This document shows, piece by piece, positions 2,466-48,407 of a stretch of DNA of 60,481 nucleotides. The DNA lies in the NCBI RefSeq assembly GCF_004353825.1, contig NZ_SMNA01000017.1, positions 1 to 60,481 of the forward strand, in the 5' to 3' direction. This DNA comes from Occultella glacieicola (GTDB taxonomy: Bacteria > Actinomycetota > Actinomycetes > Actinomycetales > Beutenbergiaceae). The notes below the pieces were generated by a model. The model ran no database searches. It worked only from the letters and a program-made list of their open reading frames with translations, and was not told the DNA's origin. Position 1 is the stretch's first letter; each line of letters begins with the position of its first letter. The translations under genes and the position numbers were made by a program.

Positions 2466-2643
2466 CGAACGATTATCCCGTAGTTGCCCGTGCCCGCCGG
2501 GATCCTGGACGGTGAGCCTCGGCACACGGGTTCGACCCATGGCGCCGACTCCCGTACACTCATCCGAGGTGGTTGACGCCCGCCATGATGGATCGTGCCC
2601 GAGTGGCCCTGGTCCACCGGCACCCGGGCGGCACTCATCGCGA

Positions 2644-2716
2644 AGGGTAGTGGCGCAATTGGTAGCGCACCGGTCTCCAAAACCGGCGGTTGAGGGTTCG
2701 AGTCCCTCCTGCCCTG
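2644..2716 (+). tRNA. tRNA-Trp (CCA)
   Basis: Acceptor stem AGGGTAG/CTGCCCT, anticodon arm CCGGT-CTCCAAA-ACCGG, T-loop GGTTCGAGTCC; canonical position before secE; 3' CCA not encoded. Confidence 0.97.
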
Positions 2717-2774
2717 CACAGTCCGTCGATCGCCCGTCGAGCCGCCATCCACACGAACGAGTTGGGGAACACCT

Positions 2775-3353
2775 GTGAGCACACCCACGAACCCGGAGTC
2801 GGGCGAACCCGACGGCGGCGAACGTGGCGACGTCACCGGCCCCACCGACCCCGTCGACGAGGTCTCCTCGGCGGAGGTGGCCGACGCCGACGACGTGGGC
2901 TCCGACTCCGACGAGAACGCGAGCGACGCCGTCGACGAGCCCGCGACCGACTCCTCGACGGAGGCGGCCGCCACGACCGGGAGCGCGAGCCGGTCCACCT
3001 CCCGGCGGGCCTCCTCGGACGCGGGCGGGCGGTCCGTGAGCAAGTCGGGGTCCGCGAAGCCCACGTCGGCCAGGGCGGACAAGGCCGTGGCCGCGACCGC
3101 GGGAGCCGGCAAGGGTCGCGCGACCCGGAGCCGTGCGGAGGCCGAGCGCGAGGTGCGGCTGAACGTCTTCCAGCGGATCGCGCTCTTCGTCCGCCAGGTG
3201 ATCGCCGAACTCCGGAAGGTCGTCACCCCGACCCGGTCCGAACTGCTGACCTACATCGCGGTGGTGGTCGTGTTCGTGCTGATCATCATGGCGTACGTCG
3301 GAGTGCTGGACTTCGCGATCGGCAAGCTGGTGCTCTGGGCGTTCGGCTCCTAG
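2775..3353 (+). CDS. secE: Preprotein translocase subunit SecE with long N-terminal extension
   Basis: C-terminal FVRQVIAELRKVVTPTRSEL plus one TM helix; between tRNA-Trp and nusG; exact start uncertain. Confidence 0.9.
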   Translation: MSTPTNPESGEPDGGERGDVTGPTDPVDEVSSAEVADADDVGSDSDENASDAVDEPATDSSTEAAATTGSASRSTSRRASSDAGGRSVSKSGSAKPTSARADKAVAATAGAGKGRATRSRAEAEREVRLNVFQRIALFVRQVIAELRKVVTPTRSELLTYIAVVVVFVLIIMAYVGVLDFAIGKLVLWAFGS

Positions 3354-3508
3354 CGCCGCAGGCTCCCACCACGATGCCCCGGGGGGCGTCACCGGCGATG
3401 TGACGCCAGTTGCGCGAAGCGGGACAATGACGAGGTCGGACGGTTCCGATTCTCGATGAAGCATGCAGGATCAACGAGCAGGACAAGACGAGGGAAGCAG
3501 GTCAGGAC

Positions 3509-4279
3509 GTGTCTGAAGAGACCCGCGACACCGGCGAGGCGGTCGACGTCGTCGAGGAGGTCGGCGCCGACGGCGTGGACTCCGGCGACGGTACGGACCC
3601 CGCGGGCATCGCCGAGGACTCGGCCGTGTCCGAGCAGGATTCCGCCGAGGCCGGCGTCGACGCCACCGACGAGGACGAGGACCCGCTCGTCGCCTTCCGG
3701 CGCGAACTGCGGATGCTGCCCGGCGACTGGTACGTGATCCACTCCTACGCCGGCTACGAGAACCGGGTGAAGGTCAACCTCGAGTCCCGGATCCAGTCAC
3801 TCAACATGGAGGACTACATCTTCCAGGTCGAGGTGCCCATGGAGGAGGTCGTCGAGATCAAGAACTCCGTCCGCAAGGTGGTCCGCCGGGTGCGGATCCC
3901 CAGCTACGTGCTGGTGCGGATGGACCTCACCGACGAGTCCTGGGGCGCCGTGCGGCACACCCCGGGCGTCACCGGCTTCGTCGGGCACACGCACTCGCCG
4001 GTCCCGCTGAGCATGGACGAGGTCATGTCGATGCTCGCCACCACGGTGGAGCAGAAGGCCCCGGCCGCGACCGGTGGTCGCGCCCCGGCCGCCACTCCCG
4101 CCGTGCAGGTCGACTTCACCGTGGGCGAGTCGGTCACCGTCACCGACGGCCCGTTCGACACCCTGCCGGCCACCATCTCCGAGATCAATGCCGAGGCCCA
4201 GAAGCTCAAGGTGCTGGTCTCGATCTTCGGCCGCGAGACGCCCGTCGAGCTGTCGTTCAACCAGGTCGCCAAGATCTGA
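3509..4279 (+). CDS. nusG: Transcription termination/antitermination factor NusG
   Basis: [36 protein letters not shown]. Confidence 0.97.
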
Positions 4280-4381
4280 TCCCGCTCATCCGAGCAAGGG
4301 TCCGGACCGGGCCCTGACCGCAAGGTCGTGCAACCGGGTCATCGCCCACGGCGTAGGCCCATCAACAGAAAGCAGCAAGGC

Positions 4382-4813
4382 ATGCCCCCCAAGAAGAAGG
4401 TCACCGGCCTCATCAAGCTCCAGATCCAGGCCGGCGCGGCCAACCCCGCGCCGCCGATCGGCCCCGCGCTCGGTCAGCACGGCGTGAACATCATGGAGTT
4501 CTGCAAGGCCTACAACGCGGCCACCGAGTCGCAGCGCGGCAACGTGATCCCGGTCGAGATCACCGTCTACGAGGACCGCTCGTTCACGTTCATCACGAAG
4601 ACGCCGCCGGCCGCCGAGCTCATCAAGAAGGCCGCCGGTGTGGCCAAGGGCTCCGGTACCCCGCACACGACCAAGGTCGGTTCGCTGACCAAGGAGCAGG
4701 TCCGCGAGATCGCCCAGACCAAGTTCGAGGACCTCAACGCCAATGATCTCGACGCCGCGTCGCTGATCATCGCCGGCACCGCCCGTTCCATGGGCATCAC
4801 CGTCACGGACTGA
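4382..4813 (+). CDS. rplK: 50S ribosomal protein L11
   Basis: [29 protein letters not shown] at 4382. Confidence 0.98.
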
Positions 4814-4860
4814 ACCGTCCCTGACCCACAACCCGCTGCGGGCGCCACGCCCGCCGCACA

Positions 4861-4895
4861 GTGGAAGGGTCCGCGCGGGCCCGCACCACGACTGC
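4861..4895 (+). promoter_or_regulatory. Putative L1-binding autoregulatory hairpin upstream of rplA
   Basis: GTGG-AA-GGGTCC...GGGCCC-GCA-CCAC stem with internal loop just before the rplA RBS; assignment to L1 is inference. Confidence 0.45.
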
Positions 4896-4914
4896 TCAGT
4901 CGAAGGAGAAGCAG

Positions 4915-5616
4915 ATGACCACGCGCAGCAAGGATTACCGCAAGGCCGCCGAACTCGTGGAGGCCGACCACGTCTACGCCCCAGCGGAGGCGATCGAGGT
5001 CGCCCGCAAGGGTGCCGCGACGAAGTTCGACTCGACCGTCGAGGTCGCGTTCCGGCTCGGGGTCGACCCCCGCAAGGCCGACCAGATGGTTCGCGGCACC
5101 GTGAACCTCCCGCACGGCACCGGCAAGACGGCCCGGGTGCTGGTCTTCGCGACCGGTGACCGCGCGGAGCAGGCCATCGCGGCCGGTGCCGACGAGGTCG
5201 GCGGCGACGAACTCATCGAGAAGGTCGCCGGCGGCTACACCGACTTCGACGCGGCCGTCGCCACGCCGGACCTGATGGGCAAGGTCGGTCGACTCGGCCG
5301 TGTGCTCGGGCCCCGTGGCCTGATGCCGAACCCGAAGACCGGCACCGTCACCATGGACGTCACCAAGGCCGTCACCGACATCAAGGGCGGCAAGATCGAC
5401 TTCCGGGTGGACAAGCACGCCAACCTGCACTTCATCATCGGGAAGGTCTCGTTCAGCCCCGAGAAGCTGCTGGAGAACTACACGGCCGCCTACGAGGAGG
5501 TCATGCGCCTGAAGCCGGCCTCCTCCAAGGGCCGCTACATCACCAAGGCCGTGCTCAGTACGACCATGGGCCCCGGCATTGCGATCGACCCGGCGAAGCT
5601 GTCCGCGGAGGTCTGA
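4915..5616 (+). CDS. rplA: 50S ribosomal protein L1
   Basis: [48 protein letters not shown] before ATG 4915. Confidence 0.98.
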
Positions 5617-5637
5617 GACCCGCCCGTTGCACGACCA

Positions 5638-5672
5638 TCGGCCCGGCCCCTGAAGACGGGGGGCCGGGCCGA
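5638..5672 (+). terminator. GC-rich hairpin after rplA
   Basis: TCGGCCCGGCCCC...GGGGCCGGGCCGA inverted repeat. Confidence 0.6.
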
Positions 5673-5768
5673 CGTGTGAGCGTCGAGTCCGGCCGGTCAC
5701 GCCGTGGCCCATCCCACAGGCCCGGGATTTGGCCCGGTCGCCGACGCTGTGTAAACTTGTGCCTGCCC

Positions 5769-5900
5769 AAGACCGCCGGTCGCCCGTCACACGACGGGGC
5801 CAAGTCCGCAGATGCGGAGCCAGCGCAGGTGAACGAGTTCGATCAGTGCCGGAACGTCAGTTCCGAATTCGAACCCCGTGCATCTGCGCGGGGTTCTTTC
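5769..5900 (+). promoter_or_regulatory. Ribosomal protein L10 leader (autoregulatory RNA)
   Basis: AAGACCGCCGGT...GCGCAGGTGA elements and a closing GAACCCCGTGC/GCGCGGGGTTC hairpin upstream of rplJ; TAAACT -10 at 5752. Confidence 0.7.
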
Positions 5901-5948
5901 CGTATGTGCGCCCCTCGACCTTCGCGGCACATCTCGGAAGGAGGGCCC

Positions 5949-6476
5949 ATGGCACGGCCTGACAAGGCGGCAGCAGTTGCCGAACTGACGGAGAAGTTCC
6001 GCCAGTCCACGGCCGCTGTGCTGACCGAGTACCGCGGGCTCACGGTGGCCCAGCTCAAGTCGCTGCGCACCGATCTCGGCGGTACCACCAGCTTCGCCGT
6101 GGTGAAGAACACGCTCACCGGCATCGCGGCCAAGGAGGCCGGCATCGACGCGTTCGATGGCGAGCTCACCGGTCCGTCGGCCATCGCCTTCATCTCCGGT
6201 GACCCGGTCGAGGCGGCCAAGAGCCTGCGTGACTTCGCCAAGGCGAACCCCAAGCTGGTCATCAAGGGTGGTGTCCTCGACGGGCGCGCCCTGACGTCCG
6301 AGGACGTCACCAAGCTCGCGGACCTCGAGTCCCGCGAGGTGCTCCTGGCCAAGGCGGCCGGTGCGTTCAAGGCGAAGCTGCACCAGGCGGCCTACGTCTT
6401 CAACGCCCCTGCCTCCAAGGCGGTGCGCACCATCGAAGCCCTGCGTGAGAAGCAGGCGACGGAGGCCGCGGCCTGA
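5949..6476 (+). CDS. rplJ: 50S ribosomal protein L10
   Basis: [23 protein letters not shown]. Confidence 0.97.
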
Positions 6477-39136: not shown

Positions 39137-39191
39137 TCGAGCGTTCCGAGCACGCCCGTTCGGCCTGCCACATGCTTGGAACGATCAACTC

Positions 39192-39271
39192 CCACCCCGT
39201 CGTGGGACGCCTCACCCTCGCCTCACCCGCCACGTGAATCTGGTTCACCCACGGCCACCTCGCAATCATCC
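39192..39271 (+). promoter_or_regulatory. Array of helically phased TCACCC-like direct repeats
   Basis: CCACCC 39192, TCACCC 39212/39223/39245, CCACCT 39255, TCATCC 39266; spacings 20,11,22,10,11. Confidence 0.55.
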
Positions 39272-39469
39272 CTCGAACTCCTTACCGCGCCCGAACCCAG
39301 GTGGTTGAGTTCCACACAGCCGGGGATGTCAGAGGCGGCCGATCCCGCCCCTCGCTTCGCGGGAAGCCACCAGGTTGACGGAGGACGGGGCAGTGTTGAT
39401 TCGTGTCATCACCGATGCGGCGAGGACGATCTCCTGCGCGCACGGAGCACAGGACGACGAGGTAGACCG

Positions 39470-40948
39470 GTGGCACTGACAACCGACCGTCCCTCTCGGA
39501 TCCGCTCGGGCCGCGGGGAGCTCCTCGCCAGCCTGATCTCGCGGATCGCGTCGCCGGTTCCCGCTGAGGAGGAGCCGACCTGGGCGGAGGCCTCCCGTCG
39601 GTACCGGGCGATCGCGATCGCGTCGGACGCGGTGATCGCCGTGGCCGTCACCTGGCCCGCCGCCGCGTTGATGTACCCGGGCGGCCTCGCGCTCGCCATC
39701 GGAGTCGTCGTGGCCGCGTTGTTCGTGACGACCGTCGCCCTGCACGACGGTTACGACACTCGTCGAGCCGCATCGGGCGCCGCCGAACTCACCGCCATCG
39801 CGCGCAGCGGATTGCTGCTGGCCGTCGGGGTGATGGCCCTGGTCTTCGTGAACGTGGACCTGCCCCGGGTGGCGGTGATCACCAGCCTCGTCCTGATGAC
39901 CGGCGGCGCTCTCGCGCTGCGACTCGGACAGCGCTCCGTGGTTCGGCACGCCCGCTCACGGGGCAGGATGTTGCGGCGCACCCTCCTCGTCGGTTCGCCG
40001 GAGCGGCTCGCACCGGTCCTCGCCGAACTCGCCCGCGAGCCTCGGCACGGCTTCGCGATCACCGGGATCTGCCCGCCCGCCGGCAGCGGTGCCGAGGACT
40101 CCGACGCGCCCGTGGTCGGCACCGTCGAGGAGGTGCCCGACCTCATCCGGAGCCTGCGGGTGGAGACCCTGGTGATCGCCGGGGACGGCATGAGCGTCGA
40201 GGAGCTGACGAGGTTCCGGCGTCGGATCGAAGGGCTCGACGTCGAGTTGCTGGTGGCCCCGAACGTGGCCCGGGCCGGCTCGACCAGAGTGTCGCTGCGG
40301 GGCCTGACGGACACCCCGGTGCTGAGCGTGACCACCGGCCCGGGCCGGCGGCACCACTGGGGCAAGGCGGTCCTCGATCGAGGGCTCGCCGCCGTCCTCC
40401 TGCTGCTCGCCATGCTGGTGCTCGTCCCTGCTGCGATCGCGGTCCGGCTGACCTCCCGGGGGGCCGCGCTGTTCCGGCAGACTCGCGTGGGTCTGAACGG
40501 CCGACCGTTCACGATGTACAAGTTGCGGTCGATGTACCCGGATGCGGAGGCGCGCCTGGCGGCCCTCGAGGGTCGCAGTGACGGCAACGGCACACTGTTC
40601 AAGATGCGTCGCGACCCCCGGACCACGCCGGTCGGCCGGTTCCTGCGCCGCTTCTCCATCGACGAACTCCCGCAGCTGTGGAACGTGCTTCGCGGTGACA
40701 TGTCCCTCGTCGGTCCCCGGCCGCCGCTGGTCAGCGAGGCCGCCGGATACGACGACGCGAGTCGCCAACGGCTGCAGGTCCGTCCCGGGCTCACCGGACT
40801 GTGGCAGGTGAGTGGCCGCTCGGACCTGTCCTGGGAGGAGTCCATCCGGCTCGACCTGCGCTATGTCGACAACTGGACCCTGACCATGGATCTGACGATC
40901 CTCTGGCGCACCGCACGCGCCGTCCTCGGAGGCCGCGGTGCCTATTGA
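39470..40948 (+). CDS. Polyprenyl-phosphate sugar phosphotransferase (priming glycosyltransferase, WcaJ/WbaP-like)
   Basis: N-terminal TMs, central cytoplasmic domain, C-terminal Bac_transf motifs FRQTRVG, KLRSM, DPR, IDELPQLWNVLRGDMSLVGPRP, PGLTGLWQVSGR. Confidence 0.93.
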   Translation: MALTTDRPSRIRSGRGELLASLISRIASPVPAEEEPTWAEASRRYRAIAIASDAVIAVAVTWPAAALMYPGGLALAIGVVVAALFVTTVALHDGYDTRRAASGAAELTAIARSGLLLAVGVMALVFVNVDLPRVAVITSLVLMTGGALALRLGQRSVVRHARSRGRMLRRTLLVGSPERLAPVLAELAREPRHGFAITGICPPAGSGAEDSDAPVVGTVEEVPDLIRSLRVETLVIAGDGMSVEELTRFRRRIEGLDVELLVAPNVARAGSTRVSLRGLTDTPVLSVTTGPGRRHHWGKAVLDRGLAAVLLLLAMLVLVPAAIAVRLTSRGAALFRQTRVGLNGRPFTMYKLRSMYPDAEARLAALEGRSDGNGTLFKMRRDPRTTPVGRFLRRFSIDELPQLWNVLRGDMSLVGPRPPLVSEAAGYDDASRQRLQVRPGLTGLWQVSGRSDLSWEESIRLDLRYVDNWTLTMDLTILWRTARAVLGGRGAY

Positions 40949-41044
40949 ACCAGCGGGTTGGTGCCGGGTGGAGGGGGTGCGCCCTCGTACCCCCGACGGG
41001 GGCGCATCCCCGCCTCCCGGCACCACGTCGCGCGTGGTGCGTCG

Positions 41045-41830
41045 ATGATCGCCGGACGGGCGCCCGTCGCGGCGACGATGGAGGCAGACGTCGACGACCT
41101 GCACCTCGCCCAGGTGCTGGCCGGTTCGACCGGCGACCTCCTCGAGGAGTTGCGCGCCGACTGTGCAGGGCTCGAGCCTTCCGAACTCGGCCGTCGCGCC
41201 CGGGCGCGGGCGGGCAGTTTCCTGGCGTCCCAACTGATCGCACGATGCCCGATGGACTCGGTGCTGTCCGGCGTGAACGCGGGCAGTTCGGACCCGCGGG
41301 CCAGACGCACGTGGTTGATCGGCGCACTGGACGGCGCCGAGGAGTTCGCGACCGGCCGCCGGGACTGGGGGGTCAGCGTCGCCCTCCGGTCCGGGGGCGT
41401 CGTGACGGCGGCCGCCGTGGCTCTCCCGGGGCTGGACATGCTGCTCAGCATCGATTCGAGGACCCCGCCGTATCCCGGTGAGGCGCAGCGGCGCCTGGTC
41501 GTCGAGCGGGGCGCCAGCGCGGCGCTGGTGGACGCGGTGGCCGTGGCGATCGGCGGTCGCGCTGTCCGGGCCGGGTCCGTCGCGTACCGCACCGCGGCCG
41601 TCGTGCGGGGTGAGGCGGACGCGCACCTGCACCTGGGCCGACTGCCGGTCTGGGACGTCGCGGCTCCGGTTGCCGTGGCACGCGCGGCCGGGCTCCACAC
41701 GAGCCTACTGAACGGCAGCGAGGTCCCACTCGACCGGCCCGACCACGTGGTGCCCGACCTGATCATCTGCCGCAGGGAACTGGCGCCGGAACTCCTCCGG
41801 ATCGTCAGCGCCATGCCGCTGACCGAATGA
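41045..41830 (+). CDS. Inositol monophosphatase/CysQ-superfamily protein with degenerate active site
   Basis: Fold motifs DSVLS, WLIGALDGA, DWGVSVAL, AAVALP, GS, WDVAAP, HTSLLNGS resemble actinobacterial CysQ; start may be 41045 or 41078. Confidence 0.8.
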   Translation: MIAGRAPVAATMEADVDDLHLAQVLAGSTGDLLEELRADCAGLEPSELGRRARARAGSFLASQLIARCPMDSVLSGVNAGSSDPRARRTWLIGALDGAEEFATGRRDWGVSVALRSGGVVTAAAVALPGLDMLLSIDSRTPPYPGEAQRRLVVERGASAALVDAVAVAIGGRAVRAGSVAYRTAAVVRGEADAHLHLGRLPVWDVAAPVAVARAAGLHTSLLNGSEVPLDRPDHVVPDLIICRRELAPELLRIVSAMPLTE

Positions 41831-42165
41831 CCGGGCCAGGGCCGGCTCCGCGAGCGGCGCAGCGAAGCCGGGTTCGCGGCGTGTCCTAGCCGGCCAGGAC
41901 CGGCGCGAGTGTGGTAACGAGCAGGTCTCGATCTAGATCATTCACTGACATGATCGCGACCTTCTCGTTATCCTCGGGTGGTCAACCCAGTGTGAGATCG
42001 TCTGCGAGCCGCGTTCGAGCCCGTAACGGTGTGTCAGGGGGGCCTCATCGTCGCTATGCCCGACTCGTTCGGTGGCTTGATCGCTCGGAACGCGCACAGT
42101 GGTGCGCGAAGGTCGTGCTGCCTGCGTGACACGCCGTGGAACCGGATGCCTGCCGGAGGGGCCCG

Positions 42166-44625
42166 GTGACGGCCGAGACCGCGTCGCTCCCTCCTGGCCT
42201 GCCGCGGATCCCACGTGACACCCAGATCAGCGAGCACGTGCTCAACACGCTTGCGGGCGAGCACCCGCTCACGGTCCTGCGTGGGCCGCGGGGGTACGGG
42301 AAGACCAGTGCCATCGTGACCTGGATGCGCAGCGCCGACCGCCCGCACGCGACCGTCTACGTCACCCTCAGCATCGCCAGCAACGAACTGGACGGATACT
42401 GGGCGGAGCTACGGTCGGGGCTCGAGCGAGCGGAACTCCTGGGCCCTGCGGCACCGGGTTCCGACCCGCATGCGGACGTGACCGTGCTGCTCGCGGAGCG
42501 GCGGGAGCCACTGGTCCTGATCATCGACGACTTCCACGAGGCCGGGCTCAAACACGGCGCCGCGACGATCGACGACGAGATGGTCGACCTCGTGCGGCAG
42601 AACGACCAGCTGTTCCTGGTGGTCGGTTCACGGACCCTGCGAGCACTCGAGACCACCGGTGCCCTGTCCGTCGAGGCCGCGATGATCGGTCCGGCCGACC
42701 TGCGGATGACCGGGCCGCAGGTGCACGACCTGGCGTCCCGGCTCGGGCTCACGATCACGATGGACCAGGCCCAGCAGATCGCCGTCGACCTGGGTGGTTG
42801 GCCCTCGGCGATCCGGGCCGGGCTGATGCGTGCCGTGTCCGGCTCCGACGGCATCGACGGGCCGCTGGTCGACGGGAGCCTCGTCGATGGTTACATCGCC
42901 ACGATGGTGCGCGACCTGCGGTTCGAGAACGTGCGTTCGTTCCTGCTGCGCACGGCGATCCCCGAGCAGTTCGACATCGAGATGGCCCGCGCGATCGCAC
43001 CCGAGGGCAACACCGTCCGGATCCTGCGGAACGTGCGGGCGGCCGGGCTGCTCAGTGAGCGGCACACCGTCGAGGGGCAGATGTACTCCTACGCCCCGGC
43101 GATCCGCAACGCACTGATCCGGGTCATGCGGGAGTCACGCCCCGAGCTGTTCCGGGAGGTGCATCTGGCGCTGATGCATCTCTCGGCTGCCAACCGGGAC
43201 CCCGGCGAGACGCTGACACATGCGGTGCACGCGGCCCAGTGGGCCACTGCGATGGACGTCATCGAACGGCAGTGGGCGCGCCTGCTCACGCACCAGCCGC
43301 TGACCCTGATCGCCGCGGCGCGGCGGTTCCCCGACGACATGGTCGCGCAGAACGCCCGGCTCCGGGTGGCCGTCGACTACGTCGAGGGCGCACTCGACCC
43401 ACACTCACCGGACACGAACATCTGGGCGGTCCCGGACTACAGCGCCATCAACGCCATCGTCGAGGAGAACCGGTCGGAGGCAGGGGATCCCGAGCGCGAC
43501 GAGAGCCTCGTGCTCCTGCAGTGGGGCATCTCCAGTCTGCTCGGCGGCAACCTGGACACGGCCATCTACGCCTTCGGCCGTGCCCGTGAGCGCGGACTGA
43601 TCTCGCCGGCGGACACCGGCGCGCTCCAGATGGGGACCGTCGGCCTCGCCCTGGTGCACGCCGTGAACGGCGAGCCGGACCTGGCCCTGCGCTGGCTGGA
43701 GGACTCCACCCTCCAGGACCGGATCCAGCACGCCCAGCCCGAGGATGCCCGGGACATCTCGCTGGTCGCGGCCAGCATCGCCCGGGCACTCGCCATGGCC
43801 GACGCAGCCCACCCCGGCGCCGACGAGGCGGTCGCCACGATGATCGAACCACGGCACCGGGACGAGCTCTGGGCACTGACCGTGTTCATCCGAGCCCACC
43901 ACGTGGTGCTCCACGGCACTCCGGACCGGATGTTCCGGCAGACCAACCACCTGCGCGCCGCGCTGCGCCACATCGCCCGCGGGAGCCTGGTCGAAGCGGT
44001 CCTCAGCTCGACCCTCGTGGAGTTGCTCCTGGTGGCCCAGATGCCGGGGGTGGCCCGTGAGGTCGCGGACCGCTACGACGGAAACCCGGTGGCCTGGGCC
44101 GCGATCGCGAAGGTGCATCTGACCGACCGGACGTTCGGGGAGGCGATCGCCTACGCGACGAAGTCGCTCGACTCCGGAGGGTCGCGGCGCGCGGCCATGG
44201 AGTGCCAGGTCATCCTGGCCAGCGCCCACCACGCGTTGGGCAACCTCACCGAGGCCAGGCGGGCGTTCGCCGACGCCGTACGGCTGGGGCAGGCGACCGG
44301 GCAGCGGCGACCGTTCTTCCTGATGCAGCGGTACGTCTTCGACACCCTCGCCGGCGACGACCCCCGGATCCACCAGCTCTGGCCGGGCGCCGAGGGTGCG
44401 CCGGTGCAGCCGCCAGCGCCGCTGGCGGACGAGATGCAGACGCTGACCATGCGGGAGGCGCAGGTGCTGCGGGCGCTCGAGGTCCACGCCGGGCCGGTGG
44501 GCATCGCCCACGACCTCGGACTGTCGGTGAACACCGTGAAGACACACCTGCGCACCATCTACAAGAAGTTCGGCGTCTCGAACCGGAACGAGGCGCTCGC
44601 CGTGGCGGAGCGCGGCCTGCACTGA
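42166..44625 (+). CDS. MalT-like STAND ATPase-LuxR transcriptional regulator (copy 1)
   Basis: Walker A GPRGYGKT, Walker B LIIDDFH, GWP motif, C-terminal LuxR HTH (LTMRE...SVNTVKTHLRTIYKKFGV); GGAGG RBS before GTG 42166. Confidence 0.92.
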   Translation: MTAETASLPPGLPRIPRDTQISEHVLNTLAGEHPLTVLRGPRGYGKTSAIVTWMRSADRPHATVYVTLSIASNELDGYWAELRSGLERAELLGPAAPGSDPHADVTVLLAERREPLVLIIDDFHEAGLKHGAATIDDEMVDLVRQNDQLFLVVGSRTLRALETTGALSVEAAMIGPADLRMTGPQVHDLASRLGLTITMDQAQQIAVDLGGWPSAIRAGLMRAVSGSDGIDGPLVDGSLVDGYIATMVRDLRFENVRSFLLRTAIPEQFDIEMARAIAPEGNTVRILRNVRAAGLLSERHTVEGQMYSYAPAIRNALIRVMRESRPELFREVHLALMHLSAANRDPGETLTHAVHAAQWATAMDVIERQWARLLTHQPLTLIAAARRFPDDMVAQNARLRVAVDYVEGALDPHSPDTNIWAVPDYSAINAIVEENRSEAGDPERDESLVLLQWGISSLLGGNLDTAIYAFGRARERGLISPADTGALQMGTVGLALVHAVNGEPDLALRWLEDSTLQDRIQHAQPEDARDISLVAASIARALAMADAAHPGADEAVATMIEPRHRDELWALTVFIRAHHVVLHGTPDRMFRQTNHLRAALRHIARGSLVEAVLSSTLVELLLVAQMPGVAREVADRYDGNPVAWAAIAKVHLTDRTFGEAIAYATKSLDSGGSRRAAMECQVILASAHHALGNLTEARRAFADAVRLGQATGQRRPFFLMQRYVFDTLAGDDPRIHQLWPGAEGAPVQPPAPLADEMQTLTMREAQVLRALEVHAGPVGIAHDLGLSVNTVKTHLRTIYKKFGVSNRNEALAVAERGLH

Positions 44626-44832
44626 GGCTGGGTTCCGTTCCGTCAGGAACGCGGCAGGAGGAGCCTGTCGAAGCCGCACGTAATGGCATCCAATGGCACG
44701 AAGTCCGGTCGCGACGTCGCCAGTTCGTCGTCGGAAGGCTGACGTACGGCCGCGGGGTCGACCATGATGGTGACTTGTTCGAGGTCACCAGCGCCCCCGA
44801 TGGGCGATCGGGTGACCGGGGAGGAGCGGACG

Positions 44833-47412
44833 ATGATCTCACCGGCCGGCCAGGGCGCAGGCGACGGCTTCGGCATGCCCCGGGTCCCGATCGGGTTCAT
44901 CGCCGCGCCCGAGGTGCGTCGCCAGCTGGGTTCGGTTCCGTCCCTGGTGGTCTTCCGCAGCCCCAGGGGCTGGGGGAAGACCAGCACGGCGTCGCACTGG
45001 CTGCGCCGACACGGCTCCGGGTACGACCGGATCTGGATCAACGTGCCCAGTCGCGACGTCGACCGGGAGGAGTTCTGGCGGATCGTGTATCGGCGCATCA
45101 GCGACGCCGGCCTGGGGGATCTGACGGGATCGGACACCTGGGACGACGTCCATGGCGCGATCTGGAAGCGGGGCCGGGACCTGATCATCGCGATCGACGG
45201 GCTGCACCACGTCACCGACCTCGGTGTCGACGAGGAGCTTCTCGCGCTCGTGAACGCGAACGAGTCGTTCCACCTGTTCGTGACGGCGCGCAGCGAGCGC
45301 CCGATCGAGACGCTCGCGAAGATCACCGCCGACGGCATGGTGTTCCGCGTGGCCCAGCTGACGCTCGGCACGGCGGAAGTGGCGGAGCTGGCCGAGGCGG
45401 TGGGCCTACCGGTCAGCCTCGCCGAGGCCCAACGGCTGCGGACCGAGCTCGGTGGGTGGCCCGCGCTCGTGCGGGCGGTCCTGGGTGACTCGAGCCGCGG
45501 CCCCGACGGTGAGCTACGGATCGACTGGTCCGCCGTCGAGAAGTACACACGCCTGGTCCTGAGTGACCCCGACGTGGCGGCGACCGCCGCGTTCGTGATG
45601 GCGATCGCCGTCCCACGGGAGTTCACCGAGGACATCGCCGCCCATGTCCTCGGGCGAGGCGTGGCAGACCTGGCGTTCGACTACCTGACCGGTTCGGGCC
45701 TGCTCACCAGGTCGGCCGCGCCCGGCCCGCCCGCCTTCCACTATTCGAGCGTGGTGCGCCATGCCATCCTGCGGGTGTACGCCGAGCGGGATCCCGAGGG
45801 CTACCAACGGGCCAACCGGGACATGGCCGCGTGGTACCGGGAGCGCGGCGTCGCCGATGCCGCGCTGGAACACGCGGTTCGCGCGGAGGACTGGCCCTCG
45901 ACCGCGTCGCTGATCGAGGCCTTCTGGGTCGAGCTCGTCTCGGGCCATCCCGACCAGGTGCGGGACGCGCTGGGACGACTGCCGGCGGCGCTGGTCCGGG
46001 GGAGCGCCCGGCTGCTGGTCGCGCGGGACTACATCCTCAACGTGGACACCTCCGAACGCTCGTTGTCGGCGCTCAGGGCGGGGCTGCTGGACGTCGACTC
46101 CGACCTCGGCCGCACGGGCGAGCTGAGACTGTCGCTGGGTCAGGTCCTGTCGCTGCGGTCCACGGGCCAGTACGAGGTGGCCCGGGAGATCGTCGAACGG
46201 CAACGGGTCGACCTGCTCACCGCGGAGGGGGACTGGACCGAGGACGTCCTCTCCGAGATGCCCGAACTGCTCCTTCAATGGAGCATCACCCGGCTGTTCG
46301 GTGCGGACACGGTGGGTGCCGCGTACGCGTTCCGGGAGGCCTACCGGTGGGCCGGCGAACGCGGGCTGACCCCGGCTAAGCGGGAGGCGGGCGCCGGCCT
46401 GGCGCTCTCATTGGCGGTACTCGGACACACCCTCGGCGCCCAGCGGTGGTTGGCGCGTGTCGAAGGCCTCGCCCGCTCCGACGACACCGAGCCGACCACC
46501 CTCGAGCACCTGAGCGTCCGGTTCGTGCAGGAGATCATCGACCTGGACTCCCTCCGGCTCGAGGTCGGACCGCAATGGTGCGATCCCAAGGTCCCGGTCG
46601 CGCTCGGCGACCTGAGGGCCATCGCGCTCCAGCTCCACGCGAGCCGGTCGATGCACGCGGGCAGCCGGTTCGACTCCATCGGCATGCTGGAGAGTTACCG
46701 GCAGCAGTTGCAGGAGCAGGGCCGGGGACCGGGTCTGGCCGACAACGTGGTGGTCACCGCGCTCGTGGACCTGCTGATCCAGACCGGCCAGTCCGACCGT
46801 GCCCGGGCGATGCTCGCCCACGCCGATCCGGCGAGCTCGTGGCAACGGCTGGCCCTCGCCCGTCATTCGCTGTACGCGGGGGAGTTCGAGGACGCGATCG
46901 CCTTCACGGACAACGCGGTCCCCCAGGCCGGCGTCCGGCCACGCACCGCCCTGCACCTGGCGCTGATCCGAGCCAGCGCGTCCCACCGCGCCGGACTCGC
47001 CGATCAGGCCGCCGATGCCCTGCACCTTGCGATCGCGGTCGCCGAGCAGAGCGGGCAGTTGCGGCCGTTCCTGATGGTGCCGCGGGCGGACCTGGAGGAG
47101 ATCGGTGCATCGATGCCCCAGGCCGCGGAGTTCCTCTACCGCCCGGAACTGGTGGACGCACCGGAGCTGTTCCCGGCCCCGCACGAGGCGATCCGGCTCA
47201 GCGAACGCGAGCTGAGGGTCCTCACGGAGATCGCCCCCGGCCTGTCGCTGAGCCACGCGGCCCGACGTCTGTACGTCTCGGAGAACACGATCAAGACCCA
47301 GATGCGCAACATCTACCGGAAGTTGGGCGTGCACACCCGCGAGGACGCCATCGACCGCGCGCGTGAACTCGGTCTGCTGGCACCCCTGGCGGACGTCGAC
47401 TCCGTCGACTGA
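44833..47412 (+). CDS. MalT-like STAND ATPase-LuxR transcriptional regulator (copy 2)
   Basis: Walker A SPRGWGKT, Walker B IAIDGLH, GWP motif, LuxR HTH (LSERE...SENTIKTQMRNIYRKLGV); GAGGAG RBS before ATG 44833. Confidence 0.92.
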   Translation: MISPAGQGAGDGFGMPRVPIGFIAAPEVRRQLGSVPSLVVFRSPRGWGKTSTASHWLRRHGSGYDRIWINVPSRDVDREEFWRIVYRRISDAGLGDLTGSDTWDDVHGAIWKRGRDLIIAIDGLHHVTDLGVDEELLALVNANESFHLFVTARSERPIETLAKITADGMVFRVAQLTLGTAEVAELAEAVGLPVSLAEAQRLRTELGGWPALVRAVLGDSSRGPDGELRIDWSAVEKYTRLVLSDPDVAATAAFVMAIAVPREFTEDIAAHVLGRGVADLAFDYLTGSGLLTRSAAPGPPAFHYSSVVRHAILRVYAERDPEGYQRANRDMAAWYRERGVADAALEHAVRAEDWPSTASLIEAFWVELVSGHPDQVRDALGRLPAALVRGSARLLVARDYILNVDTSERSLSALRAGLLDVDSDLGRTGELRLSLGQVLSLRSTGQYEVAREIVERQRVDLLTAEGDWTEDVLSEMPELLLQWSITRLFGADTVGAAYAFREAYRWAGERGLTPAKREAGAGLALSLAVLGHTLGAQRWLARVEGLARSDDTEPTTLEHLSVRFVQEIIDLDSLRLEVGPQWCDPKVPVALGDLRAIALQLHASRSMHAGSRFDSIGMLESYRQQLQEQGRGPGLADNVVVTALVDLLIQTGQSDRARAMLAHADPASSWQRLALARHSLYAGEFEDAIAFTDNAVPQAGVRPRTALHLALIRASASHRAGLADQAADALHLAIAVAEQSGQLRPFLMVPRADLEEIGASMPQAAEFLYRPELVDAPELFPAPHEAIRLSERELRVLTEIAPGLSLSHAARRLYVSENTIKTQMRNIYRKLGVHTREDAIDRARELGLLAPLADVDSVD

Positions 47413-47432: not shown

Positions 47433-47495
47433 TCACCCTCCTCCCTCACCCGCACCACCCGTAGTCGCGGCTGCCGATTCACCAGCCGATCACCA
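47433..47495 (+). promoter_or_regulatory. TCACC[C/A] box array upstream of putative sRNA unit 1
   Basis: TCACCC 47433/47446, CCACCC 47455, TCACCA 47479/47490. Confidence 0.5.
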
Positions 47496-47539
47496 CGCGG
47501 GTGGCTACGCGGCCCGTCCGGATCTGGTGATCTTGTTCC

Positions 47540-47760
47540 GGTCCCGCCTCCGCGTCGAGTAGCCCATGACGCCGGTCGTGCCGGATCCAGACGACCGATC
47601 GCCGAGGCTGGGGGAGACACGTGAGCCACACAGCGGGATAGGACATGCGGTGGCCGATCGGCCACCGCCACAGACGCGGCCGCCGTTTCGCTCCCCCCGG
47701 GACGACGCCGCACCACACAGGGGCCTCGGTCGTCTCCCCCACGGCCGGGGCCTCTGTGCT
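47540..47760 (+). ncRNA. Putative 6C-like small RNA, unit 1 (two adjacent hairpins with CUCCCCC loops); 5' end uncertain
   Basis: Hairpins 47676-47711 and 47716-47758 (18-bp stem), both with CTCCCCC loops; 22-bp palindrome 47647-47668 upstream; G-U pairs form only on the + strand. Confidence 0.6.
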
Positions 47761-47778
47761 CCGTCCGGCCCTCGCGTC

Positions 47779-47830
47779 TCACCCCCTCCGGGTCAGGAGT
47801 CACCCCGGCACGATCACCACCCGTTCATCT
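47779..47830 (+). promoter_or_regulatory. TCACC[C/A] box array upstream of putative sRNA unit 2
   Basis: TCACCC 47779/47800, TCACCA 47814, TCATCT 47825. Confidence 0.45.
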
Positions 47831-47877
47831 GTCGGGGGCATTGGTCCGGGCCGGGGGATCTGGTCAGATTGATCATG

Positions 47878-47985
47878 TTCGGACCGGTACACCGGTCCGG
47901 GTTCCGCACCCGCGACTCCAAGCGCGGATCCGCGGTAACGAGCAGGGGCTCCGGTCGTTTCCCCCACGGCCGGGGCCCCTGCTTC
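47878..47985 (+). ncRNA. Putative 6C-like small RNA, unit 2 (paralog of unit 1); ends uncertain
   Basis: Hairpins 47880-47899, 47901-47939 (ACTCCAAG loop) and 47941-47983 (18-bp stem, TTCCCCC loop); the last is homologous to 47716-47758 with pairing-preserving changes. Confidence 0.55.
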
Positions 47986-48185
47986 GACGTTCGGCGCCGG
48001 TCGGTGTGAGCGAGACCGCAGTGGGGTCGCTTCCCCGCGGTTACCGCAACTGTCGGCGATGCCGTACGATAGACCGTTGGGCGTGGCATGTCGCGGGTTC
48101 TCCCGCGCGCACCGTGTCGCGCCCGGTTCGGACCAGCAGGTCGGCGGGCACGTCGGCATGCACAGCACAGCAGTTAGCGGAGGAC

Positions 48186-48407
48186 ATGGCAAAGAAGGAC
48201 GGTGTCATCGAGATCGAGGGCAACGTGGTCGAGGCGCTGCCGAACGCGATGTTTCGCGTGGAGCTCACCAACGGTCACAAGGTTCTCGCTCACATCTCGG
48301 GCAAGATGAGGCAGCACTACATCCGGATCCTCCCCGAGGACCGGGTCGTGGTCGAACTCAGCCCGTACGACCTGTCCCGCGGACGCATCGTCTACCGCTA
48401 CAAGTAA
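48186..48407 (+). CDS. infA: Translation initiation factor IF-1
   Basis: [26 protein letters not shown]. Confidence 0.99.

Follow-up and report, generated by a model that had tools for sequence, protein, structure and literature searches.

Between the MalT-like regulator gene lux2 (end 47412) and infA (start 48186), Occultella glacieicola, an actinobacterium whose genome has 71% GC, carries two hairpin units, here called unit 1 (hairpins H1, H2 and H3) and unit 2 (H1′, H2′ and H3′). They were analysed within a stretch of 60,481 nucleotides (contig NZ_SMNA01000017.1, positions 1 to 60,481), hereafter the window. Comparison with related genomes indicates that the units are a real, selected RNA element and that unit 1 is the emptied cassette of an LPXTG surface-protein gene to which H3 has been added. 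The model that we regard as slightly better than an even bet is that the units are small RNAs (sRNAs) activated by MalT-like regulators, whose C-rich loops would block G-rich ribosome-binding sites (RBS), with feedback on lux2 through H2.

The upstream part of unit 1 has a second DNA match in two congeners (G002 and G003), ahead of a gene for a 670-aa LPXTG-anchored protein. The 5′ half of the unit is colinear with the boxes, the leader, the GGGGGA Shine–Dalgarno sequence (SD) and the start codon of that gene (alignment score 99; maximum 45 in 200 shuffles and 53 in 500 random genome pieces). At the 3′ end of the LPXTG gene, an H1-like palindrome holding the stop codon is followed by an H2-like hairpin with the loop CTCCCCCC. 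In a comparison with entire intergenic regions the 3′ match was marginal (2/200 shuffles for the window, G001 and G003; 28/200 for G002), and when it was limited afterwards to the H1–H2 stretch it gave 0/1000 for the window and G003 and 6–8/1000 for G001 and G002. The sequence-only reading had overlooked an SD and a vestigial open reading frame (ORF) inside unit 1. Between SD and H1, this ORF has 52 codons in G003 and 6 codons in the window, and in G001 and G002 both SD and ORF are lost; locus L069 also shows the 52-codon form. The end of the 52-aa product of G003 resembles the LPXTG sorting-signal tail (pairwise E 3e-4), and Pfam returned no match for the small ORF of unit 1. Because both ends align with the intact LPXTG gene and the ORF is found with 52, 6 and 0 codons, the alignments argue for an emptied cassette. 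The LPXTG query used retrieved no intact gene from G000 (the genome of the window), G001, G004 or G010; of these genomes, G000 and G001 still have unit 1. As would be expected of an sRNA left by an eroded gene, unit 1 (over H1–H2) retains 3′-end homology to an intact gene in relatives, as does unit B of the genome G117 described below, and by homology it also retains the promoter of its parent, with putative activator binding.

The two units had been described in the sequence-only reading as tandem duplicates. All six of the hairpins it listed were found where it had placed them, and the two 18-bp terminal hairpins, which share 90% identity across 39 nt, differ in the way it had claimed: outer pairs are swapped on both sides, G–C and G–U pairs are exchanged, and one loop base is changed. 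However, units 1 and 2 could be aligned only across this terminal hairpin, which excludes duplication of a whole unit. Nor is the supposedly common motif GGATCTGGT..TGTTC equally spaced, since TGTTC follows GGATCTGGT after 5 nt in unit 1 (47534) and after 11 nt in unit 2 (47876), and the TGTTC of unit 1 is not retained in congeners. Both units are kept in three congeners (G001–G003), whereas a genome of another genus (G004) has a single one, matching unit 2, which we judge from this to be the older.

Over 9 nt, the vestigial SD and the H3 loop are perfectly complementary (rank 5/4614), which would fit an ancestral icaR-like pairing between 3′ and 5′ ends. Unit 1 could then be a cis element, in which the untranslated region at the 3′ end (3′UTR) folds back on the SD of the small ORF, as in icaR or a type I toxin mRNA, with no role in trans. 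Besides the complementarity, this proposal can draw on the hydrophobic, basic-ended tail of the 52-aa ORF of G003 and on the parent LPXTG gene, which combines a GGGGGA SD with a C-loop 3′ hairpin. Yet the loops are still conserved in G001 and G002, where SD and ORF are gone; the window retains just 6 codons, unit 2 has no ORF, Pfam recognised nothing, and the predicted fold pairs the SD with neither loop. We therefore consider a purely cis-acting fold-back quite improbable. A type I toxin–antitoxin system was rejected on similar grounds, the 52-aa ORF being present in one of four genomes, reduced to 6 codons in the window, absent from two, and similar to an LPXTG tail.

Conservation was graded along the units. 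Across the three congeners, identity to the window was 85–89% for H2–H3 and 94% for H3′; it was 77–85% for H1′–H2′ and 71–77% for the boxes of unit 2, compared with 59–61% at 489 fourfold sites of lux2 and 52–57% in the spacer following unit 2; these values suggest purifying selection on H2–H3 and H3′. The loops are invariant or almost so while the stems drift, and the TCACC activator boxes of both units are retained in four genomes. In nine terminal hairpins, 97.5% of cells were paired and 5 of 18 pairs were altered on both sides, figures that come from related sequences and hence do not amount to a probability. Selection on RNA structure, as originally claimed, is thus supported by conservation and pair counts, but stem covariation alone is insufficient to argue for an sRNA. 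The proposed location of the structure on the + strand is clear for unit 1 (folding z-score −4.8 on the + strand versus −1.2 on the − strand) but weak for unit 2 (−5.6 versus −4.2).

The distribution of the terminal hairpin was narrow. A model built from it (R1), with which 150 or 36 candidates were scored per genome, and which can miss copies and missed those of G010, gave matches of at least 54 bits in G000–G004 only among the scored candidates of 36 family genomes, and nothing further above 46 bits among those of 151 order genomes. Matches of a model of H1–H2 (R2) were limited to the genus and two LPXTG gene ends; a 33.7-bit match in G001 was dismissed as it had no C-loop. Among the 1159 YTCCCCC sites of the genome, the two terminal hairpins are the YTCCCCC-loop hairpins with the longest stems, and their 22-nt core has only two copies in the genome, even when up to 2 mismatches are allowed. 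The element is therefore not the scattered, repetitive extragenic palindrome (REP)-like repeat that the sequence-only reading had named as its own possible refutation, and REP-like or miniature transposon (MITE)-like repeats were rejected, as many dispersed copies would be expected of them. That the hairpins act as DNA, through cruciforms or protein-binding palindromes, or as a repeat element, might be suggested by H1, a perfect palindrome; given the G–U pairs, the bias of folding towards the + strand and the two copies per genome, we find this barely credible. An exact search of genome contigs with the pattern proposed in the sequence-only reading returned 41 stretches, only two of which (L043 and L069) lie by lux and infA; the other stretches read in detail were coding or unrelated. 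L043 and L069, named records from two Occultella species, have an identical gene layout and lux2 genes about 90% identical. A loose TCACC pattern searched in 36 genomes gave coding noise. A 20-mer from the unit 1 promoter matched in 27/401 order genomes; outside the genus, 23 of the 24 matches listed have one GA(G/A)CACC variant and were taken as coding with their loci unread. A metagenome search with lux2 found 2 irrelevant loci.

A rival view is that both units are decayed cassettes in which the hairpins survive solely as terminators or insulators, shielding the infA–rpmJ–rpsM operon from transcription that runs on from lux2 and the activated promoters, the C-loops being incidental. When the weaker R1 matches were inspected, 42/45 proved to be similar long stems without a C-rich loop, and the H3-type stem appears to be a generic, widespread terminator-type hairpin across the order. 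It probably terminates transcription, with the conserved loop as its distinctive part, and because of this generic character the stem covariation may reflect termination alone. The ORF and leader of unit 1 are visibly decaying, no clear −10 element is present, and most relatives do without the units. Nevertheless, this reading is in our view unlikely. It leaves aside the near-invariance of the loops against drifting stems, the conservation of the internal H2, the fact that a single terminator would be enough, the activator boxes kept in four genomes, and the return of a loop–leader match with a different sequence in family f3.

The putative activator sites link the units to a wider regulon. 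Among 51 intergenic TCACCC pairs, 15 are spaced by 11, 22, 33 or 44 nt (8 of the 51 are 36-nt pairs out of one tandem repeat), and the best permutation of the letters reached 4, overlapping the same sites. Tandem repeats of 36 nt and longer repeats that contain TCACC were seen at G000 C23:430–930 and C21:186400–187300 and inflate the 36-nt count. The boxes resemble MalT boxes in their 6-bp half-site motif and phasing of about 11 bp and are candidate sites of that kind. On contig C19, TCACCC clusters accompany glycosyltransferases, an O-antigen ligase-like gene, a PqqD-family gene and, by sequence and with no family call, a flippase-like ORF. This exopolysaccharide and surface locus (C19:208000–256000; L269–L271) has four or more phased TCACCC promoters, part of them palindromic (TCACCCCGGGGTGA), and is a candidate remote regulon of the MalT-like pair; besides the PqqD-family gene it contains a 79-aa ORF that belongs to no known family. 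In other genera such boxes are found after lux homologs and ahead of large LPXTG or sugar genes (L222–L224, L236, L237); where lux directly adjoins infA (L225, L226, L228), no arrays are present. Three C19 promoters have TAGATT, TACTTT or CAAGAT as a plausible −10 at 22 nt past a box, as read by eye, which matches the geometry of Actinoplanes MalT. The similarity of the unit 2 promoter to the sugar transferase promoter was not significant (12–32/500). Together with conservation and pair counts, the TCACCC boxes support the proposed connection of the units with MalT-like regulators and the proposed anti-SD nature of the loops.

On this basis the favoured model runs as follows. The activators would bind the TCACC(C) boxes, for which there is good support, and turn on surface-protein and exopolysaccharide genes as well as both units. 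Unit 1, as its homology shows, arose from an LPXTG cassette that lost its ORF by deletion while keeping promoter, leader and H1–H2, and it carries a copy of the terminal hairpin of unit 2. Transcripts would end at H3 and H3′ and expose C-rich loops of 7 nt, whose predicted partners are GGGG(G)AG ribosome sites, where pairing would block initiation. The best-fitting target would be lux2 itself, through H2, which would constitute a negative feedback; some genes of the regulon (the PqqD-family gene, the 79-aa ORF and, where present, the LPXTG gene) would be secondary targets.

GGGGAG or GGGGGA precedes 130 of the 4615 genes called by our own script, including lux2 (from ATG 44833), the PqqD-family gene and the 79-aa ORF, the latter two of which sit behind TCACCC clusters. 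H2 (loop and upper stem) is predicted to form 14 bp with the lux2 RBS, with one bulge, at rank 5/4614. With all forms scored on the G000 background, the lux2 rank was 14–16 for H2 forms of congeners and 6–25 for the 3′ hairpin of the LPXTG gene itself. Predicted net energies, opening costs included, were −11.7 kcal/mol for lux2, −11.0 for the PqqD-family gene and −1.5 for the infA control.

Against the model weigh a number of results. The target ranks were obtained post hoc, as lux2 had first been picked out by eye, after which 4 seeds were scored on 14 targets and longer probes followed; our gene calls, moreover, missed some C19 genes. The H3 loops rank lux2 just 240–412/4614, the sugar transferase gene, which is the nearest TCACCC-driven gene, ranks 2780–4046, and unit 2 on lux2 is weak (predicted net −6.0 kcal/mol). 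By our own count, GGGGAG precedes 2 of the 6 genes behind boxes spaced by 11 nt. G268 and G193 have a GGGGGAG lux RBS and no units at the locus, and a search for a matching loop in these two genomes failed as the pattern was too common; conversely, G010 has two TTCCCCC-loop hairpins before infA and a lux RBS that is not G-rich. Of 14 lux–infA gaps read, 9 are short (204–315 nt) and have no units. For unit 1 alone, covariation did not go beyond shuffles (86/500), and the abundance of stems like H3 without the loop has been mentioned. Finally, in neither unit could a canonical −10 be identified, nor is there one at the 22-nt geometry of the three C19 promoters, and TANNNT is absent 22 nt after the last box of unit 1.

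A parallel case was found in family f3, where G117 has the order lux, TCACCC pair, a 2482-aa LPXTG gene, two homologous ORF-less units (A and B) and infA. In the congener G411, the place of unit B is taken by a complete second LPXTG gene, with which both ends of unit B align (0/500 shuffles each); the unit is an emptied form of that gene. The second gene of G411 (L292, reverse strand 2480–6090) is read as two ORFs, split inside a Pro/Thr repeat; near the end of its first LPXTG gene (reverse strand ~1870–2000), a duplicated stretch with N is likely an assembly artefact. In the G117 units a hairpin loop exposes UUGUGAUC, and the LPXTG leader carries the complementary GAUCACAA directly ahead of the SD. 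The leader motif recurs in G214, of another genus, and so does the loop, about 110 nt past the LPXTG stop (10 bp). UUGUGAUC and GAUCACAA each occur only at these sites in the 19 kb read per genome (G117 and G214), GATCACAAG occurs 4 and 5 times per genome, and GATCACAAGGRAG has matches in 31 of 401 class genomes. Among 29 other leader-motif loci read across the class, none has a TCACCC array and one has TTGTGATC nearby, so that the loop–leader pair was not found more widely among the loci read. The f3 elements do not align with the units of the window (450/500); the design is common, the sequence is not.

These data led us to a broader proposal, which we put forward tentatively and rate somewhat short of even: that MalT-like-activated surface cassettes whose 3′ hairpin loop is antisense to a ribosome site within the same circuit are a recurrent design across the order; that in at least two families the ORF was independently deleted to leave stand-alone sRNAs; that seed and target changed together (UCCCCC/GGGGAG versus UUGUGAUC/GAUCACAA); and that the stages (full gene, 52, 6 and 0 codons) lead to a convergent 6C-like RNA feeding back on the activator. 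Three observations call for caution. The leaders of G117 and G214 are homologous (0/500), so their sharing of the motif is conservation and not two independent events. TTGTGATC is coding (L-V-I) in the second gene of G411, and the first origin of the f3 loop motif may thus be incidental. The 3′ element of G214 did not align significantly with unit A of G117 (97/500). Possibly the f3 motif is instead a DNA site, GATCACA resembling GATCACC.

Table 1. Features of the lux–infA region and its surroundings in the window.
Feature	Position	Strand	Basis or remark
Three TCACCC boxes (spacing 11, 22) ahead of bacterial sugar transferase gene	39212..39250	+	Pfam Bac_transf; boxes of the type seen in the units
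lux1, MalT-like AAA/TPR/LuxR regulator	42136..44625	+	Start uncertain; MalT model E 8e-33, under the model's cut-off
lux2 ribosome-binding region GGGGAGGAG, predicted main target of H2	44816..44832	+	Pairing predicted
lux2, MalT-like regulator	44833..47412	+	Family search, start comparison
Unit 1 activator boxes, TCACC at 47433, 47446, 47479, 47490 (last two 11 apart)	47433..47495	+	Homologous to LPXTG gene promoter of G002/G003
GATCTGG and T(G/C)ATCT, possible −10-like element	47521..47533	+	T(G/C)ATCT kept in LPXTG promoter; putative role
5′ leader remnant from the LPXTG parent gene	47540..47609	+	Alignment
Vestigial SD GGGGGAG (47610–47616) and 6-codon ORF (47621–47641)	47610..47641	+	
H1, perfect 22-nt palindrome	47647..47668	+	Homolog contains LPXTG gene stop codon
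H2, loop CTCCCCC (47691–47697)	47676..47711	+	Homolog comes after LPXTG stop; predicted lux2 RBS pairing
H3, 18-bp terminator-type stem, loop CTCCCCC (47734–47740)	47716..47758	+	Copy of unit 2 terminal hairpin
Unit 2 activator boxes, TCACC at 47779, 47800, 47814	47779..47819	+	
GATCTGG...TGTTC stretch ahead of H1′	47857..47880	+	
H1′, near-palindromic hairpin	47880..47899	+	
H2′, loop GACTCCAA (47914–47921)	47901..47939	+	Missing from G004
H3′, 18-bp terminator-type stem, loop TTCCCCC (47959–47965)	47941..47983	+	Also in G004
Conserved motifs 5′ of infA, outside both units	48005..48069	+	Family-wide comparison
infA, translation initiation factor IF-1	48186..48407	+	Sequence and place ahead of rpmJ/rpsM

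For lux2, ATG 44833, which lies behind GGGGAGGAG, is a likelier start than 44764 (the longest-ORF start) or 44809, and the G004 ortholog starts at the equivalent position. The gene that we take to be infA was named from its sequence and its place before rpmJ/rpsM; there was no Pfam call on the correct frame. Ahead of infA, TGTGAGCNAGACCGC and GATGCCGTANGAT..ACCGTTGGG (48005–48075) recur throughout the family; they are likely the promoter of infA itself and a regulator site, TGTGAGCNAGACCGC resembling a CRP/GlxR half-site. The interval from map to infA (39137–47412) is an insertion hot spot, holding in the window the sugar transferase gene, an inositol monophosphatase-family gene and the lux pair and in relatives LPXTG or exopolysaccharide genes; it is empty in genera g3, g4, g5, g10 and g11.

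Hairpins of related appearance were also noted elsewhere. In G010 (L251, reverse strand 3130–3330) the two TTCCCCC-loop hairpins flank three short hairpins; this third form of the C-loop unit follows ACCAGATC, whose reverse complement is GATCTGGT of the window. In L120 (G066), 3′ of rnpB and on the opposite strand, a hairpin with a near-identical TCTCCCCCAC loop sits behind a small helix-turn-helix-like ORF in an unrelated context. L094 (G046) and L098 (G024), both from genus g6, have homologous hairpins with the loop CTCCCCCGAA, lux and boxes being absent nearby. In G000 itself, terminator-like hairpins with CTCCCCC loops follow short ORFs at C21:159000 and C21:36675, one of them preceded by a Phe/Gly-rich ORF of 16 codons that has a strong SD.

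Few examples of the birth of an sRNA and its entry into a regulon have been worked out, and the question is still open. In the present case, intermediates lie side by side in one genus with a parallel case in another family, which makes the question directly testable. If the model is correct, it would define a negative-feedback loop acting on the MalT-like control of surface proteins and exopolysaccharide in actinobacteria, and would imply that the 6C architecture can arise convergently. We found no description of this system in the literature searched, which was mostly without subscription papers and without supplements.

The closest known architecture is that of 6C RNA, to which the units had originally been likened. 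Two adjacent C-rich loops are indeed present in unit 1 (H2 and H3), but not in unit 2, whose middle loop is GACTCCAA, and neither covariance score nor locus agrees. No Rfam family exceeded its gathering score in the region: the 6C model (RF01066; gathering score 47) gave 26.9 bits for unit 2 of the window, 32.6 for unit 1 of G003 and 24.8 for G002, and reported no match to unit 1 of the window at E up to 10. Unit 1 might still be a diverged and relocated member of the family. The G003 copy aligns over the full length of the model with both loops in register, and no 6C scored above the cut-off in 36 family genomes. A C. glutamicum control that has 6C also fell below the cut-off, so that a sub-threshold score is not decisive either way. 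For the position of ncRv13660c we take Rv3660c to be the ssd/TIGR03815 gene, and no C-loop hairpin was seen upstream of the TIGR03815 gene of the genome itself; the units sit between lux2 and infA, a different locus. Homology to the LPXTG gene further weakens membership, as H2 traces to the end of that gene and H3 to unit 2, and we regard it as highly improbable. The sequences thus point to a likeness in architecture only, and by analogy unit 1 may work like 6C.

According to PMC6486639, actinobacteria lack Hfq, and the C-rich loops of 6C (B11/ncRv13660c of M. tuberculosis, scr3558 of S. coelicolor) bind G-rich ribosome sites without chaperones. Unit 1 would share with them the adjacent, exposed C-rich loops of H2 and H3 and the predicted chaperone-free pairing with such sites; the units here differ in loops of U plus 5–6 C, in locus, in the origin from an LPXTG gene end, in their MalT-like boxes and in their narrow distribution. 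For the regulon, the accessible text of PMC7567727 gives the Actinoplanes MalT motif (ACSP50_3915) as TCATCC-5-GGATGA, with its end 34.4 nt ahead of the start site (near −35), and quotes the E. coli MalT box as GGGGA(T/G)GAGG. Common to both systems are a pair of MalT-like regulators and a TCA(T/C)CC half-site with an 11-bp period, lying near −35 in Actinoplanes and presumably also here; the boxes here are mostly direct TCACCC repeats, some palindromic, and the targets are LPXTG and exopolysaccharide genes; that text mentions no sRNA for the Actinoplanes regulon. In Staphylococcus aureus, a UCCCCUG in the icaR 3′UTR pairs with the SD, as stated in PMC3868564, and together with the UCCC sRNAs of the RsaE class (PMC2790875) it resembles the present case in an unpaired UCCCC of a 3′ region that is complementary to a G-rich SD and in the control of a cell-surface or exopolysaccharide circuit. 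Here the motif lies in hairpin loops and outlives its ORF, and the sequences are unrelated. For the origin, the nearest relative is OxyS, which, as outlined in bioRxiv 10.1101/2021.10.18.464853, arose from a peroxidase mRNA: in both, a regulon gene beside its activator would have eroded to an sRNA that keeps the activator promoter and the 3′ end. The present case differs in being actinobacterial, MalT-like and LPXTG-derived, in the coexistence of 52-, 6- and 0-codon stages in one genus, in the recurrence of the emptying in a second family with another seed, and in the predicted feedback on the RBS of the activator. Both the mechanism (6C, RsaE, icaR) and the route of origin (OxyS) already have precedents; the present case contributes an uncommonly well-preserved run of intermediate stages and a definite prediction of feedback.
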